The notes under the pieces are model-generated. The model saw only the letters and a list, made by a program, of their open reading frames with translations, searched no databases and was not told the origin of the DNA. 57,198 nt of DNA from an uncultured archaeon (GTDB lineage: Archaea; Aenigmatarchaeota; Aenigmatarchaeia; PWEA01; JAGHBM01). The stretch lies in the NCBI GenBank assembly GCA_964640225.1, contig CAZXFI010000002.1, positions 1 through 57,198 on the forward strand, written 5' to 3'. Every line of letters starts with the position of its first letter. Within the stretch, counting starts at the first letter, position 1. Positions 1-36,055 of the stretch are shown here, piece by piece. The position numbers were made by a program, and so were the translations under genes.

Positions 1-169
1 CTACAAGAGGGTCTGCTTTTCCCATATCATATTTCTTCCAGACATTATCGATTTTTATTATTCTTTCTTGTTTCATTCTTTAAGACTTCCTTTTTGGAAT
101 TCAATTTCCGAAAAAATTTTATTAACTCATTATGAACATCTTTATTTATACAAAAAAATAAAAAAAGAT

Positions 170-550
170 TTATTCTGTTGCTACTCTGTGACATCCTTCT
201 TTGAATCCATCTTTCATCTTAGGACACCCTTCAGAGCCATGACAACCGCCCATTCTTTTATGATACTTTTGCATGCTCCTCTCCTTGTCCTGGTGCATTG
301 GGCAGTCTCCAGCGTAGTCACATTCGCCGTCACCATCAGCATCTGCAAATCCTTCTCTTTGGCCTTTGTTGTCACAGACTCCATCGCCATCGCCATCTAC
401 AAAATTGTCGCATACATCATCACTGTCTTCATCTACAAATCCTGTGGCTGGTGCGTTTTCTGTTTCTTGAGCAAAAGCAAAACCCATTGTCGCAAACAGC
501 CCGACAACAAACATTGCTCCAATGCCGATTACCGCTATTTTTCGATCCAT
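170..550 (-). CDS. Secreted Cys/His/Met-rich protein with three DxDxD(G/D)xCD calcium-binding-like repeats
   Basis: ATG at 550 (MDRKIAVIGIG...). Signal peptide ending AFA-Q. Repeats DEDSDDVCD, DGDGDGVCD, DADGDGECD. C-terminal CPMH, GGCHG, CPKM. Confidence 0.7.
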   Translation of the reverse strand: MDRKIAVIGIGAMFVVGLFATMGFAFAQETENAPATGFVDEDSDDVCDNFVDGDGDGVCDNKGQREGFADADGDGECDYAGDCPMHQDKERSMQKYHKRMGGCHGSEGCPKMKDGFKEGCHRVATE

Positions 551-579
551 TAAGTTTTCACCTCCTAAATTTTTATATA

Positions 580-672
580 TTTCATATGTTTGAAACCGTA
601 TATAAAAGTTTGCTGAAACCAATATTTTTGGTTTCATAATAATGAAATTTGGTTTCTAAATAATGAAACCAA
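580..672. promoter_or_regulatory. Divergent promoter with clustered GTTTCA/TGAAAC operator-like inverted repeats
   Basis: Perfect IR TGAAACCAA-N5-TTGGTTTCA (614-636), TTGGTTTC-N8-GAAACCAA (649-672) and TTTCA-N6-TGAAA (580-595), flanked by TATA-like boxes. Confidence 0.6.
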
Positions 673-710
673 TAGCAACTTTTATATATTACCCCCATTT
701 ACAATAAACA

Positions 711-1259
711 ATGAAAGTCAAGAATAAAACATTTTGGTTGCCCATTTCAATAATTGCTTTGGTGGGGGTTGTTTTCATATTTTGGCAAAGCATTTTTACA
801 GGCACACCCATGAACGGGCACGGTATGTGTCCCAGAATGATACCCAATTATCTGTTGTGGCTTTCCATGGTTTTGATGGTAATAGTGGTTGTGCCGATAT
901 CATATCACTTTGTTTCTAAAAAATTGGAAGAAAAGATGGAGAAAAATCTTAATATGATTACTAAATTAATGAATCATAAAATCGCATCAGAAAATAATGA
1001 CGAAAAGATTAGATTAACCAGCAATGGAAATATTTTGAAATTATTAAATCCGAATGAAAGGAAAGTTATTGAAAAAATAATTGAGAACAAGGGAAATGCA
1101 TTACAGTCTGAAATTAGCAGGATGGAAGGCATGACCAAGCTTAAAGCACACAGAGCAGTAAAGGAGCTGGCGAGTAAAGGAATTATCAAAGTTGAGCAAT
1201 ACGGCAAAACAAACCAACTTATTCTGATTGAAGATTTTAAAGACATAATACAAAAATAG
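711..1259 (+). CDS. Membrane-tethered winged-helix transcriptional regulator (2 TM + wHTH)
   Basis: Two hydrophobic helices with a GHGMCP loop. C-terminal LNPNERKVIEKI...QSEISRMEGMTKLKAHRAVKEL...GIIKVEQYGKTN wHTH. Confidence 0.75.
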   Translation: MKVKNKTFWLPISIIALVGVVFIFWQSIFTGTPMNGHGMCPRMIPNYLLWLSMVLMVIVVVPISYHFVSKKLEEKMEKNLNMITKLMNHKIASENNDEKIRLTSNGNILKLLNPNERKVIEKIIENKGNALQSEISRMEGMTKLKAHRAVKELASKGIIKVEQYGKTNQLILIEDFKDIIQK

Positions 1260-1359
1260 GATTACTAATGCGAATCTATAACATGTATCTTAATCTTTCA
1301 AATAACAGGTTATCAGAACTAAAATTGTAAATAATTTTTAATTACAAATAATTTTTTAT

Positions 1360-2106
1360 TCACAATCCCTTTACCATGTTTCTTTTATGAAAATGGATTG
1401 ATATCAACAAGAAAACGACCGTGAAAAAAATCAAAGCAAAGAAATCCACCACCAAAGGAAACACAGACGCACCACCCAACCCAGCATGAAACAAATCAAC
1501 AAGATACGTAAGCGGGGAAACATACGATAAAAACTGTCCAACTCCCTGAAGATCCTGCAATGGAATAAAGATACCGCTAATGAAAATCAACGGAAACCGT
1601 ATCAAACTGGAAAACATCATAATGTGAGATGGCGAGCGAACAGAGGGGGAAGCCAAGGCCACACCCAGCGACGCAAAACAAAGCGTGCCTAGGACCAGTG
1701 CAATGGCCAGTATCAGCAAGTTCATGAGAGGAAACTGCAGGAAAAAAAGAGCAGCTACCGTGACCAGTGAAGTGATTATCAACCCATAGACCGCACCGGC
1801 CAGCACGTCGCCTAAAATGATAGTATGAATGCTCACAGGGAAGGAGAGCAACCGCTCGTATGTCCCCGCCTGCTTCTCCCACGGAGTGATTAGCGGACCG
1901 ACGGATGACGAGGTAAAAAACAAGGCCATCGCAAGAAAACCCGGGAAAAAGAGCGATATGTCGACCGTCCTGCCCATTTGAAATGATACGAACATAAACA
2001 GCGGAAACAAAAGCCCGAATATGATTACGGGCGCTTTCCTGTAGTAAATTTTGATGTTCTTTTCAGTGGTGACCAGGACACCCCGCAGAAAAATCGGCAG
2101 GTTCAT
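1360..2106 (-). CDS. ABC-2 type transporter permease
   Basis: About 6 TM helices, EKQAGTYERLLSFPV motif, PLTYLVD near the C-terminus. Directly downstream of the ABC ATPase. Confidence 0.9.
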   Translation of the reverse strand: MNLPIFLRGVLVTTEKNIKIYYRKAPVIIFGLLFPLFMFVSFQMGRTVDISLFFPGFLAMALFFTSSSVGPLITPWEKQAGTYERLLSFPVSIHTIILGDVLAGAVYGLIITSLVTVAALFFLQFPLMNLLILAIALVLGTLCFASLGVALASPSVRSPSHIMMFSSLIRFPLIFISGIFIPLQDLQGVGQFLSYVSPLTYLVDLFHAGLGGASVFPLVVDFFALIFFTVVFLLISIHFHKRNMVKGL

Positions 2107-33416: not shown

Positions 33417-34102
33417 GGATAGGCGGTTTCCAGAGATTTTCTCTGATAGATTATCCCGGAAAAATATGCGCAATAGTTTTCGCCCAGGGTTGCAACTTCA
33501 GTTGCCCTTACTGCCATAATCCGGAACTTGTAAACCCGGAAATTTTTTCTCCTACAATTTCCGAGAAAGACGTTTTTTCTTTTCTCAAAGAAAGGAAAGG
33601 CAAACTGGATGCCGTTTCCATAACCGGCGGCGAGCCGACTCTACAGAAAGACCTAACGGGATTCATAAATAAAATAAAAAAAATGGGATTTTTGGTGAAG
33701 ATGGATTCCAATGGAACCAACCCCGATATTGTTGAAAATATAATCAGCAGAGGAATTGTGGATTATCTGGCCATGGACGTAAAGGCTCCGCTAGAAAAGT
33801 ACGAAGATGTTGCAAGAGTTAAGGTAGACACAGAAAAAATAAAAAGAAGCATAGAGTTGATAAAGAAATCCGGAATTGAACACGAGTTTCGCACAACAGT
33901 CGTAAAGTCCCAATTATCGGAAAAAGACATTACCGGCATATTAAAATTGATAAAAGGCGCAAATCTTTACATAATCCAGAAATTTGTTCCTTCCAAGACA
34001 CTTGACTCAGCCTTTGCCGAAGAAGAGACATATACTGATGAAGAGTTCAGGTATTTAAAAAATAAGGCAGAAAAATACGTGAGAGAGTGTGAGTTAAGAT
34101 GA
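33413..34102 (+). CDS. nrdG: Anaerobic RNR activating radical SAM enzyme
   Basis: ATGA overlap with nrdD. SLIDYPG, GCNFSCPYCHN, ITGGEPT. Confidence 0.93.
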   Translation: MRIGGFQRFSLIDYPGKICAIVFAQGCNFSCPYCHNPELVNPEIFSPTISEKDVFSFLKERKGKLDAVSITGGEPTLQKDLTGFINKIKKMGFLVKMDSNGTNPDIVENIISRGIVDYLAMDVKAPLEKYEDVARVKVDTEKIKRSIELIKKSGIEHEFRTTVVKSQLSEKDITGILKLIKGANLYIIQKFVPSKTLDSAFAEEETYTDEEFRYLKNKAEKYVRECELR

Positions 34103-34671
34103 ACAAAGAGGAAAAAATGAAGATTTTGGAAAAGGAAGTGAAAAAGTGCCAAAGGTGCTCCCTGCACGAAACCAGGAACAATCCCGTGCCCGGGGAAGGC
34201 TTTCTGGACGCAAAAATCATGTTCATCGGCGAAGGTCCGGGTTACTGGGAAGACAAAGAAGGAAAGCCTTTTGTGGGAAAGGCAGGCAGGGTTCTGGACG
34301 AGCTTCTCGGCTCAGCAGGACTCTCCAGGGAAAAAATTTACATAACCAACGTACTGAAATGCAGGCCTCCGGAAAACAGAGACCCTACCGGAGAGGAGGT
34401 GAAAGCCTGCACTTCCTATCTTGACAGGCAGATTGAGATAATTCAGCCAAAAATAATAGCGGCCCTGGGAAGGTTCGCCACCTCTTACATATTCGGCAAA
34501 TTCGGCCTGGAGGAAAGGAAGATAAGCGCTGTGCACGGGGAAGTTTTCAAAGTCAGCACGGTTGCCGGACAGATTAAAATAATCCCTCTTCTTCACCCGG
34601 CAGTGGCCACCTACAATCCCGGCAGGATTGAGGAGCTTAAAAGGGACTTTGAAAAGTTGAAAGAGATTTAA
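34099..34671 (+). CDS. udg: Family 4 uracil-DNA glycosylase ([4Fe-4S])
   Basis: CQRCSL, GEGPG, GKPFVG, KCRPPENR, HPA. Confidence 0.93.
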   Translation: MNKEEKMKILEKEVKKCQRCSLHETRNNPVPGEGFLDAKIMFIGEGPGYWEDKEGKPFVGKAGRVLDELLGSAGLSREKIYITNVLKCRPPENRDPTGEEVKACTSYLDRQIEIIQPKIIAALGRFATSYIFGKFGLEERKISAVHGEVFKVSTVAGQIKIIPLLHPAVATYNPGRIEELKRDFEKLKEI

Positions 34672-35120
34672 AGCAAACTTGAAATTTTTTCTTTCAGTTT
34701 CACTATGTTTATCTTTCCGATTGTTTCCTTTTCTACAAGGCCCCTGCTTTTAAACCTCTTAAGTACGCGGGAAACCTTTACCTTGGAAAGGCCGGATTCT
34801 CTTACGAGTTCGGCCTGGTTTATTTCAGGTTTTTCCAGAATTATTTTGAAAATTTTCCTTTCCTCTCCCTCAAGGAAATCCAGCAGGCTTTTCTTGTCCA
34901 CCTTCCTGTCAAATCTGGGTGAAAGAAGATAGTAAACTATGGTGCCTATGAAAAGCCCGATGGAAGCTATGAAAGGTATGAAAATGGGAATAGGAATAAA
35001 GCAGCCGCAGGCGTTTCCAGACGATATCTCTGTCTGCACATACAGAGAACTTATTGACACTATGAGCACGAAAATGGAAACCAGCAGGATGCCAAAAATA
35101 ATTTTCTTTGATTGCTCCAT
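34668..35120 (-). CDS. Membrane-tethered winged-helix regulator (2 TM + wHTH), paralogue of 711-1259
   Basis: Two TM helices with an ACGC loop, then EERKIFKII...QAELVRESGLSKVKVSRVLKR...GLVEKETIGK. Confidence 0.78.
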   Translation of the reverse strand: MEQSKKIIFGILLVSIFVLIVSISSLYVQTEISSGNACGCFIPIPIFIPFIASIGLFIGTIVYYLLSPRFDRKVDKKSLLDFLEGEERKIFKIILEKPEINQAELVRESGLSKVKVSRVLKRFKSRGLVEKETIGKINIVKLKEKISSLL

Positions 35121-35139
35121 AGTTTCATATTTTGAAACT
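35121..35139. promoter_or_regulatory. Operator-like inverted repeat AGTTTCA-N5-TGAAACT
   Basis: Perfect 7-bp IR immediately upstream of the wHTH start codon, in a 45-bp divergent intergenic region. Confidence 0.6.
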
Positions 35140-35165
35140 TAACTATTTATATAATTTCAGTTATT

Positions 35166-36025
35166 ATGAGACTTATGAGGAAGGCTTTTATTATATTGCT
35201 GTCCGTTTTTTTAGCCTTTTCTCTTTACAGCAATTTAACTCTGGCCCAGGATTCCTGCCTGTATTTCTTTTACGGACAGGGCTGTCCCCACTGCGGGGAA
35301 GTCAAGCCTTTTCTGGAGCAGATTTAGAGCTAGGACCATTCAATTGAGGTAAAGGAATTTGAGGTTTACAACGAAAGGGAAAACGCCCTGCTTCTGCAGG
35401 ATTATTTTGAGGCCTACGGGGTTCCGCAGAATCACAGGGGCGTGCCCGTGGTTTTCATAGGGGACACGCCTATAATAAGAAACATTGAAGCGAAGATAGA
35501 AGAGTTCAGGGAATATCCTTGCCCCAGCCTGCAGGTGGGAAGCGTCAGCGGAGAAATAGGCTCTTCCTCTCCCGCGGAGAAACTGGAATCGCTTTCCCTG
35601 CTGACCGTGGTGGGTGCGGCCTTCGTTGATTCCATAAACCCCTGCGCAATAGCGGTTCTCCTTATCCTAATGGGAGCGCTCCTTGCCTCGGGAGACAGGA
35701 AAAGGGCGCTCAAGGCGGGACTGGGTTTCACTGCTTCCATTTACATAGTCTACTTCCTTTTCGGGCTGGGTTTGTTCTCAGCCATACAGATTTCAGGTCT
35801 TTCCTTCTGGTTCTACAAGTTCATAAGTTTCCTGGCCATACTAATTGGCCTTTTCAACATAAAGGACTATTTCAGCTACGGGGCCGGCGGATTCGTCATT
35901 ACAGGGGCCTGACAAACGTGGAAAAGGCCTCGGAGTGGAAGGAAAGGAACATAAAGAAGCTGCACCTGGTGGCAGGCCTGATAATGCTTATTCTGGGGCT
36001 TTTGGTCATTCTGGGATTTATATGA
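35166..36025 (+). pseudogene. Decayed secreted thioredoxin/glutaredoxin (CPHC) plus CcdA/DsbD-like membrane fusion
   Basis: Signal peptide and GCPHC, in-frame TAG at 35325 and 35331, then DSINPCA. Near 35900 a frameshift and apparent internal deletion join to the C-terminal KERNIKKLHLVAGLIMLILG. Confidence 0.8.
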
Positions 36026-36055
36026 ATTAAAACCAATAATTTTACAGGGTTGCCT

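Follow-up and report, generated by a model that had tools for sequence, protein, structure and literature searches.

Two putative membrane-bound DUF7343 regulators with conserved, spacing-specific candidate operators in an uncultured archaeon

Results

Two putative regulators with a predicted membrane hairpin

The window, i.e., the whole stretch of DNA analyzed here, spans positions 1 to 57,198 of the 108-kb contig C2, part of an assembly of 1.17 Mb in 116 contigs with 47.6% G+C that comes from an archaeon of the Aenigmatarchaeota, a DPANN group. Two of its genes, encoding R1 (711-1259, plus strand, 182 aa) and R2 (34668-35120, minus strand, 150 aa), had originally been predicted to share an architecture of two transmembrane (TM) helices and a winged-helix (wHTH) domain. 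Both ORFs were present, and hydropathy, Pfam searches and AlphaFold models (for R2 Foldseek as well) confirmed this architecture; the coordinates given in the original prediction were at most one base off. In R1, the hydrophobic segments cover residues 5-33 and 42-70 with the loop GTPMNGHGMCPRM in between, and the two predicted TM helices with their outer loop (GTPMNGHGMCPRMIPN) are followed by a long helix in the cytoplasm and, at the C-terminus, by the DUF7343 wHTH domain. In R2, the hydrophobic segments (residues 2-32 and 36-68) enclose the loop SSGNACGC, the outer motif GNACGC-FIPIP is located at the outer end of TM2, and a DUF7343/MarR-like wHTH domain forms the C-terminus.

Both proteins scored above the gathering cut-off of Pfam family DUF7343 (PF24034; 27.6 bits), R1 with 31.2 bits over residues 114-171 and R2 with 44.5 bits over residues 96-142, indicating that they belong to one family of membrane-tethered wHTH regulators, as had been proposed. 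Their identity was 35% over 68 aa and was confined to the wHTH domain. R2 also exceeded the Pfam thresholds for HTH_24, MarR_2 and TrmB; it reached 31.0 bits for MarR_2 (cut-off 27) and 24.5 bits for MarR (cut-off 24.6). The scores of R1 for MarR_2 and MarR (PF12802 and PF01047) were 13.7 and 13.9 bits, both under the cut-off. For the ArsR/SmtB family (NF033788, NCBIfam cut-off 55 bits), R2 stayed under the cut-off with 23.3 bits and R1 gave no match. The AlphaFold models of R1 and R2 (mean pLDDT 79 and 71) consisted of two long helices, a low-confidence loop and a winged helix with a pLDDT of about 90, in which the elements were ordered helix-helix-strand-helix-helix-hairpin (the wing); after the wing there was one short C-terminal helix only. 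The best Foldseek matches of the R2 model were the MarR/ArsR-type proteins ZitR, AbfR, OhrR and CzrA (E about 2e-4 to 1e-3). An N-in topology was predicted for both proteins because their N-termini are basic (MKVKNK in R1 and MEQSKK in R2), and the loop would therefore face out while the C-terminal domain would be cytoplasmic.

A Cys-containing outer loop had also been named as a common feature of these sensors, and this claim held for part of the family. In the R2 family, C38 and C40 were at least 90% conserved within the motif GN-x-CGC-x-IP-[IL]-P. The single loop Cys of R1 aligns with the first Cys of the CxC of R2, and both motifs are followed by "..IP". However, in an alignment of the 188 homologues of R1 this Cys was kept only in a close clade of relatives with at least about 55% identity (loop G-x-C-P-R-M-[IV]-P-N-Y), and the more distant relatives had a loop without any Cys. 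A profile search of 1.84 billion representative proteins returned 878 clusters at E <= 1e-10, which came from DPANN, Bathyarchaeia and other groups. Among the best 150 family representatives, CxC was present in 73 of the 137 full-length sequences and the rest had other Cys patterns or none. A residue that is missing from part of the family cannot be how all of its members sense their signal, whereas a Cys-based signal is plausible in the R2 clade and in R1's close clade.

Partner genes and promoters at the two loci

Both regulators are divergent from genes for exported Cys-containing proteins (170-553 for R1; 35166/35175 onward for R2), as had been predicted, though the second of these is a pseudogene. 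The gene at 170-553 (minus strand) encodes a small exported protein of 127 aa, counted from the ATG at 553 with GGAGGTG upstream, which has a signal-like N-terminus and seven Cys. It carries thrombospondin-type-3-like repeats (D-x-D-x-D-G-x-C-D) and a C-terminal Cys/His/Met cluster (CPMH...GGCHGSEGCPKMK...GCH), and it gave no family match in Pfam and NCBIfam. Next in this divergent operon is the N-terminus of a MacB-like ABC ATPase (MKQERIIKIDNVWKKYDMG..., 1-76, minus strand), which is cut by the contig end.

The intergenic region of locus 1 harbors the densest cluster of GTTTCA/TGAAAC half-sites in the genome (591-669). Operator site A (ATTTCA-N6-TGAAAC, 579-596) is flanked by TATA1 on one side and, on the other, by the transcription start and Shine-Dalgarno sequence predicted for the divergent gene. 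TATA1 (599-608, minus strand; TATATAAAAG on the plus strand and AACTTTTATATA on the minus strand) is conserved and, with its orientation inferred, is the predicted promoter of 170-553. It is followed by a convergent pair of half-sites, exactly TGAAACCAA-N5-TTGGTTTCA, i.e., TGAAAC-N11-GTTTCA (614-636), by operator site C (GTTTCA-N6-TGAAAT, 631-648), which was recognized in the genome scan and in the orthologous promoters, and by operator site D (GTTTCT-N6-TGAAAC, 652-669), which ends 10 nt before TATA2. TATA2 (TTTTATATA, 680-688, plus strand), whose center is about 26 nt before the ATG of R1, is the predicted promoter of a leaderless R1 transcript. TATA1, read on the minus strand, and TATA2 are one BRE/TATA word (AACTTTTATATA) in opposite orientations. 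R1 orthologues have a conserved TTTATA box about 25-30 nt 5' of the start codon, and the R1 mRNA is probably leaderless. The three N6 palindromes of locus 1, each with one mismatch, represent three of only seven in the whole genome. The location of site A suggests a repressor position for the divergent operon, while sites C and D, just upstream of the BRE/TATA2 of R1, would imply autoregulation of R1, their position fitting activation as well as repression.

At locus 2, the candidate R2 operator AGTTTCA-TATTT-TGAAACT (35121-35139) abuts the R2 start codon and is situated between the TATA box and the predicted leaderless start. Its core, GTTTCA-N5-TGAAAC at 35122-35138, is the sole exact copy both in the 57-kb window (0.05 expected) and in the 1.17-Mb genome. 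The shared promoter element (35146-35159, minus strand) consists of the TATA box TTTATATAA (35146-35154) and then a degenerate half-site, ATTTCA (35154-35159); this third half-site reads TGAAAT on the minus strand and is placed at the BRE position of R2. The palindrome fills the 17 bp from the TATA box to the start codon, a location that fits a leaderless transcript and the classic position of archaeal repressors. With no more than 45 bp between the two genes, the control region of R2 is probably shared by its divergent neighbor. That gene (35166-35974, plus strand) encodes a secreted thioredoxin-like (CPHC) and CcdA/DsbD-like protein with a signal peptide and is decayed: two TAG codons (35325-35327 and 35331-35333) interrupt the frame, internal parts have been lost, and a C-terminal piece is read in a different frame. 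Recoding of TAG was rejected as an explanation, since TAG serves as a normal stop here, terminating 186 of 763 long ORFs, and since the gene shows deletions and the frame change in addition. A ZIP metal transporter gene (36050-36796, plus strand; PF02535, E 1.3e-40) is the last conserved member of the divergent operon.

Conservation of the palindromes across relatives

For footprinting, related genomes supplied the R2 relatives, and the R1 relatives came from genomes as well as metagenomes; the start codon of each was located and the DNA upstream was read. In the R1 family (32-78% protein identity to the window), GTTTCA-N6-TGAAAC with at most one mismatch was observed in 56 of 57 distinct promoters (120 sites, 74 of them exact) and only twice in 155.7 kb of flanking DNA from these loci. 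In the R2 family (45-69% protein identity to the window), GTTTCA-N5-TGAAAC with at most one mismatch was observed in 28 of 30 distinct promoters, 25 of them exact, and not at all in 90 kb of such flanks; the palindrome sits 0-10 nt before the ATG. These promoters are related by descent, so that 56/57 and 28/30 do not count independent events; at these protein distances, unconstrained intergenic DNA would no longer be alignable. The enrichment of the motif upstream of orthologues, proposed as a check with the original prediction, was thus clear (84/87 promoters versus near none in the flanks), and the view of the repeats as conserved candidate operators at the regulators' own and divergent promoters was sustained. 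Chance origin of the repeats was ruled out by shuffles, by the whole-genome scan and by footprinting.

The arrangement around the palindromes was conserved as well, and in both families the consensus and its position relative to the TATA box and the start codon were fixed. The R1 module reads gTTTCA-N6-TGAAAC-C-a-TATATAAA-N7-TGAAACC-N9-GGTTTCA-N6-TGAAAC. Within it, site A was conserved in 46 aligned orthologous promoters as [G/A]TTTCA-N6-TGAAAC-C-[A/G]-TATATAAA, and TGAAAC-N11-GTTTCA was exact in 39 of the 57 promoters; the close clade of R1, which includes the window, has an extra palindrome before the second TATA box, which is located about 26 nt upstream of the ATG. The R2 module reads TGAAAC-ca-TATATATA-tTTAA-GTTTCA-N5-TGAAAC, followed within 0-10 nt by the ATG, the promoter consensus of the orthologues being TGAAACcaTATATATAtTTAA-GTTTCA-N5-TGAAAC. 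The half-sites that flank the TATA box here (TGAAAC-N15-GTTTCA) were exact in 23 of 30 promoters.

Inverted repeats of this kind could also act as RNA leader hairpins or DNA cruciforms instead of protein sites. Indeed, folding of the region 575-675 was much stronger than that of shuffled sequences (z about -6 for both strands), and the R2 palindrome can be drawn as a 7-bp hairpin (z about -2). However, 52 of 64 deviations in variant sites break the pairing and only three are compensatory, indicating that sequence rather than structure is under selection. Furthermore, the letters of the half-sites are nearly invariant whereas the spacers vary, the half-site occurs also as direct repeats at other family members (e.g., C1:88500-88548 and L030), and no Rfam match was obtained. 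Most of the repeats are probably untranscribed, because they lie between divergent TATA boxes or between a TATA box and a leaderless start. We consider a purely structural role highly improbable, and the repeats are treated below as protein-binding sites.

Spacing and genome-wide distribution

The spacing between the half-sites differed strictly between the families. Among the 57 R1 promoters, spacings of N3-N5, N7, N8 and N11 between GTTTCA and TGAAAC were essentially absent, and N6 was absent from the 30 R2 promoters. It had been suggested that R1 and R2 share one operator and hence one regulon. This was not borne out, since the R1 family used N6 only and the R2 family N5 only, and the genome held no further convincing targets: the scan for GTTTCA-N5/6-TGAAAC found local sites only, those beyond the window loci being just the promoters beside two more paralogues. 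We therefore read them as two insulated local circuits rather than one regulon. In both, the palindrome is conserved at the regulator's own or divergent promoter and rare elsewhere, as befits an autoregulated local operator circuit. Downstream of each of the two additional paralogues (C19:9644-10126 with loop ACGC, and R4, C24:4457-4951 with loop SCSC) there is a CPHC thioredoxin-like gene, in whose promoter one-mismatch N5 sites are located. Five paralogues in this genome agree in their recognition helix, which follows the pattern [TS]K[LV]K-x-[HS]R (K and R invariant).

Several other occurrences were inspected and set aside. GAAAC is not a general BRE of this organism, as it precedes only 4 of 170 strong TATA promoters and the general signal before the TATA box is just A-rich. 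Single (T)GAAAC words before the TATA box of a pilin-like gene (C1:127156), a rhomboid gene (C2:79169) and at C7:2474 were too weak to be regarded as targets. Of two further half-site clusters, one (C33:179-358) is an unrelated repeat and the other (C2:55580-55619) is coding sequence.

An ArsR-like gene (C24:4948-5211) adjoins R4, and ArsR-like genes are likewise found beside several R1 orthologues. The repeats might accordingly be operators of another, soluble regulator, for example of the ArsR/SmtB type, with the membrane wHTH proteins as co-regulated cargo or in another DNA-related role. However, the motif accompanies the membrane regulator gene at 84 of 87 promoters, with or without ArsR, and neither window locus has an ArsR gene. 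The N5/N6 spacing moreover co-varies with the subfamily of the membrane regulator, and the recognition helix is conserved together with the half-site. A soluble regulator as the owner of the sites is thus improbable, and there is a strong circumstantial case, short of proof, that the sites are bound by the adjacent membrane regulator.

Conserved gene partnerships

That the partner genes encode exported Cys-rich or thiol-redox proteins, as originally described, was substantiated by the neighborhoods of both families. Nearly all close-clade R1 orthologues were divergent from a small Cys-rich protein of the 170-553 type. Relatives of this protein have 78-130 aa, D-x-D-G-x-C-D-N-x-x-N-C-P repeats and the tail GGCHGSEGCP-x-MK...GGCH. 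In R1 relatives, the genes 3' of it encode an ABC ATPase or an FtsX-type permease, or else ArsR, glutaredoxin-like and thioredoxin-like proteins. Distant R1 relatives were directly divergent from ABC exporters (the MacB-like ATPase itself) or from helical secreted proteins. For about 25 of 30 R2 orthologues, the divergent gene lies about 50 nt away and encodes a protein with a signal peptide and the motif C-x-VYFTG-x-GCPHC; this protein often has about 480 aa and is fused to a CcdA/DsbD-like membrane domain. The operon order Trx-like, CcdA-like, ZIP was present in three of five genus or family relatives examined, and the window has the same order.

Discussion

R1 and R2 are very probably membrane-bound gene switches, still putative as judged from sequence, for exported Cys-rich and thiol- or metal-handling proteins. 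It is likely that they are paralogous one-component transmembrane transcription regulators which bind as dimers to spacing-specific GTTTCA/TGAAAC palindromes, with a predicted local control of the adjoining genes. In the mechanism that we propose, each protein would form an N-in hairpin of two membrane helices whose short outward loop is the sole possible sensor, and a MarR/ArsR-like winged helix in the cytoplasm. Each would bind as a dimer to the palindromes, most probably those with N6 spacing in the case of R1 and N5 in the case of R2. Because its palindrome fills the gap from the TATA box to the start and a third half-site lies beyond the TATA box, bound R2 is predicted to block the assembly of the pre-initiation complex, and it would thus repress both its own gene and the divergent thioredoxin-like/CcdA/ZIP operon through the shared 45-bp promoter. 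R1 at site A would repress the divergent operon for the secreted Cys/His/Met-rich protein and the ABC exporter, while two or three further palindromes upstream of its own BRE/TATA would serve autoregulation. The target is in every case a neighbor of the regulator gene, as would suit a factor in the membrane that controls the locus of its own insertion.

With respect to the signal, we infer that the outward Cys motif (CGC in R2 and G-x-C-P-R-M in R1), once oxidized or loaded with metal, may shift the packing of the hairpin dimer. The altered geometry of the winged helices would then release the operator, and the adjacent genes for thiol and metal handling outside the cytoplasm would be induced. 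A thiol or metal signal is plausible in view of the gene neighborhood. It counts against the proposal that the presumed main target of R2 is a pseudogene here, yet R2 and its operator are intact.

The positions of the operators suggest repression. They could also be read the other way, with the regulators as activators that recruit TFB/TBP from the flanks of the BRE/TATA and respond to envelope or export stress through the hairpin or a partner protein, not to thiol or metal chemistry. Such a role would suit the R1 sites C and D and the third R2 half-site, which are placed upstream of or at the BRE position. It would also suit the distant R1 relatives, whose loop has no Cys and whose divergent genes encode ABC exporters or helical secreted proteins, and the presence of CxC in little more than half of the full-length top representatives. 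Nevertheless, the best-conserved palindromes, i.e., the R2 site and site A of R1, lie between the TATA box and the start, where archaeal repressors classically bind; the CxC is nearly invariant in the R2 clade, and this clade is tightly linked to CPHC/CcdA genes. Activation by envelope stress thus appears unlikely to us, and repression with release by a thiol or metal signal is the reading that we follow.

A broader generalization is offered more tentatively, and we hold it to be possible rather than probable. The DUF7343 two-helix regulators would represent a widespread archaeal signaling system, in which a bare hairpin with an outward CxC (or Cys/His/Met) directly senses thiol oxidation or thiophilic metals outside the cytoplasm and switches the adjacent genes for thiol reductases, metal transporters and metal buffering. 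Paralogues would reuse one half-site and be insulated only by a spacing difference of 1 bp and by action in cis at the locus of co-translational insertion.

Gene regulation in DPANN archaea is, to our knowledge, scarcely understood. In the literature that we searched, we found no DPANN signal-sensing transcription factor with a defined operator. The DUF7343 family has a Pfam entry (PF24034) as a domain of unknown function, nearly all homologues of R1 and R2 carry this same annotation, and no publication on the family or its operators was found in the literature searched, which included archaeal membrane-bound wHTH proteins and regulators of DPANN thioredoxin/CcdA genes.

The known systems that come nearest differ from R1 and R2 in one respect or another. 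ToxR, TcpP and CadC of gamma-proteobacteria are membrane-bound one-component regulators that bind promoters from the membrane, and their activity is modulated by periplasmic Cys residues; the analogy is one of function only. In these proteins, an OmpR-type wHTH at the N-terminus is joined by one TM helix to a folded sensor domain in the periplasm, and activation is their usual mode of action. R1 and R2, in contrast, gave no Trans_reg_C match and show the reversed order, with the hairpin of two TM helices first and the MarR/ArsR-like wHTH last, a loop of about 10-15 residues and no extracytoplasmic domain; the position of their operators would suit repression, and they would work with an archaeal basal transcription machinery. 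The closest folds to their C-terminal domain are those of the MarR/ArsR/SmtB sensors (OhrR, AbfR, ZitR, CzrA and CadC of pI258), which are dimeric wHTH repressors on palindromes that overlap the promoter and are released by Cys oxidation or metal binding. However, these sensors are soluble and keep their sensing residues inside the cytoplasmic dimer, whereas the candidate Cys of R1 and R2 faces outward according to the predicted topology. A membrane hairpin replaces the canonical N-terminal dimerization helix of MarR, which sets R1 and R2 apart from soluble MarR dimers, in which helices N- and C-terminal to the wHTH form the dimer, and the R1 and R2 sequence scores for the MarR/ArsR families are mostly at or under the cut-offs. 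ArnR and ArnR1, the archaellum activators of Sulfolobus acidocaldarius, are archaeal membrane-bound transcription factors, as R1 and R2 are predicted to be. Their HTH is N-terminal and their TM helices are C-terminal; they switch on archaellin genes under starvation and have no sequence relationship to R1 and R2.

Transmembrane transcription regulators (TTRs) as a class have already been described and counted in archaea. A census listed 1,384 archaeal TTRs, about four per genome, and reported that archaeal TTRs regulate motility and pilin genes and that 17% of all TTRs have two TM regions (Demey et al., 2023; PMC10269533). Like R1 and R2, whose membrane insertion is predicted, TTRs combine a predicted TM region and a DNA-binding domain in one polypeptide. 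That study is a count: it gives no operator, regulon or signal for the DUF7343 family, and the terms DPANN, MarR and TrmB are absent from its main text (PMC10269533).

A large unstudied family of regulators is hereby paired with precise DNA sites which can be tested at the bench, together with a specificity rule (one half-site with N5 versus N6 spacing) and a coherent set of candidate targets, i.e., exported thioredoxin-like, CcdA and ZIP proteins, a Cys/His/Met-rich secreted protein and ABC exporters. Should the outward Cys motif prove to be the sensor, the regulators would be among the smallest transmembrane signaling devices known and would show how cells with minimal genomes monitor the chemistry beyond their membrane. 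Even without the signal, the operators permit the prediction of regulons in hundreds of uncultured archaeal genomes. The half-site itself proved to be family-wide: upstream of 18 more distant two-TM DUF7343 genes, which stem from other families within the class, GTTTCA/TGAAAC half-sites occurred at 15.9 per kb within 150 nt, compared with 0.95 per kb elsewhere.

R2 and its decayed partner

Our inspection of the R2 locus revealed that the predicted membrane-tethered regulator R2 (34668-35120, minus strand) and its operator were both intact despite the decay of the divergent partner. This partner, a secreted CPHC thioredoxin-like and CcdA/DsbD-like gene (35166-35974, plus strand), is a pseudogene here: two in-frame TAG codons occur at 35325-35327 and 35331-35333, internal portions are absent, and the C-terminal piece is frame-shifted and lies at 35867-35974. 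TAG functions as a normal stop in this genome. A divergent CPHC thioredoxin-like/CcdA gene is the conserved partner of the R2 type. On the other side, R2 is convergent with a gene at 34099-34671 (plus strand), and the stop codons of the two share 4 bases; judged from the sequence alone, the product of this gene resembles a family-4 uracil-DNA glycosylase. In four loci of related genomes carrying R2 relatives (L155-L158), a gene of about 130-135 aa is conserved. It lies 3' of the ZIP gene or, in L157, where ZIP is absent, directly 3' of the CcdA-like gene. Its pattern (LKGSYILL...VGSLG...YVGSAM...R..RH...K..WHIDYLL) looks, by eye, like that of a GIY-YIG/DUF123-type protein. An Rfam scan of the whole window at the gathering threshold returned zero matches, tRNA genes included.

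Origin of the R1 cassette

The locus of the second window regulator, R1 (window 1-2000), has a G+C content of 37.8% vs 47.6% genome-wide and is placed at the contig end. No match to R1 at E <= 1e-10 was found in the 18 genomes searched, all from the organism's own genus, family or order, yet metagenomes hold R1-like proteins at 75-81% identity. Taken together, these observations suggest that the entire R1 cassette was laterally acquired. In the divergent operon of R1, the gene after the secreted Cys-rich protein encodes a MacB-like ABC ATPase, of which only the N-terminus (MKQERIIKIDNVWKKYDMG...) is present at 1-76 (minus strand), truncated by the contig end.

Paralogues outside the window

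The same genome holds two further CxC-loop paralogues, each within a thiol/metal island (C19:5217-10126 and C24:2604-5211). In both islands the membrane regulator is accompanied by an ArsR-type gene and by a gene for a secreted CPHC thioredoxin-like protein, with degenerate GTTTCA-N5-TGAAAC palindromes upstream of the latter; one of the two ArsR-type genes contains a CVC motif, and the thioredoxin-like protein of C24 (579 aa) carries a membrane domain. A fifth paralogue, with a long loop devoid of Cys (C1:88559-89083, within C1:85518-89083), is divergent from an operon encoding an ABC ATPase, a secreted beta-rich protein and an FtsX permease. In the promoter of this paralogue, TGAAACG occurs as three direct repeats, one of them immediately 5' of the TATA box. 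Elsewhere in the genome, C33:100-360 is a repeat region with arrays of CACAGAGT and inverted CTCTGTGAAAC words. The half-site clusters there were rejected as regulator sites, since they arise from this repeat region, which is unrelated to the regulators.
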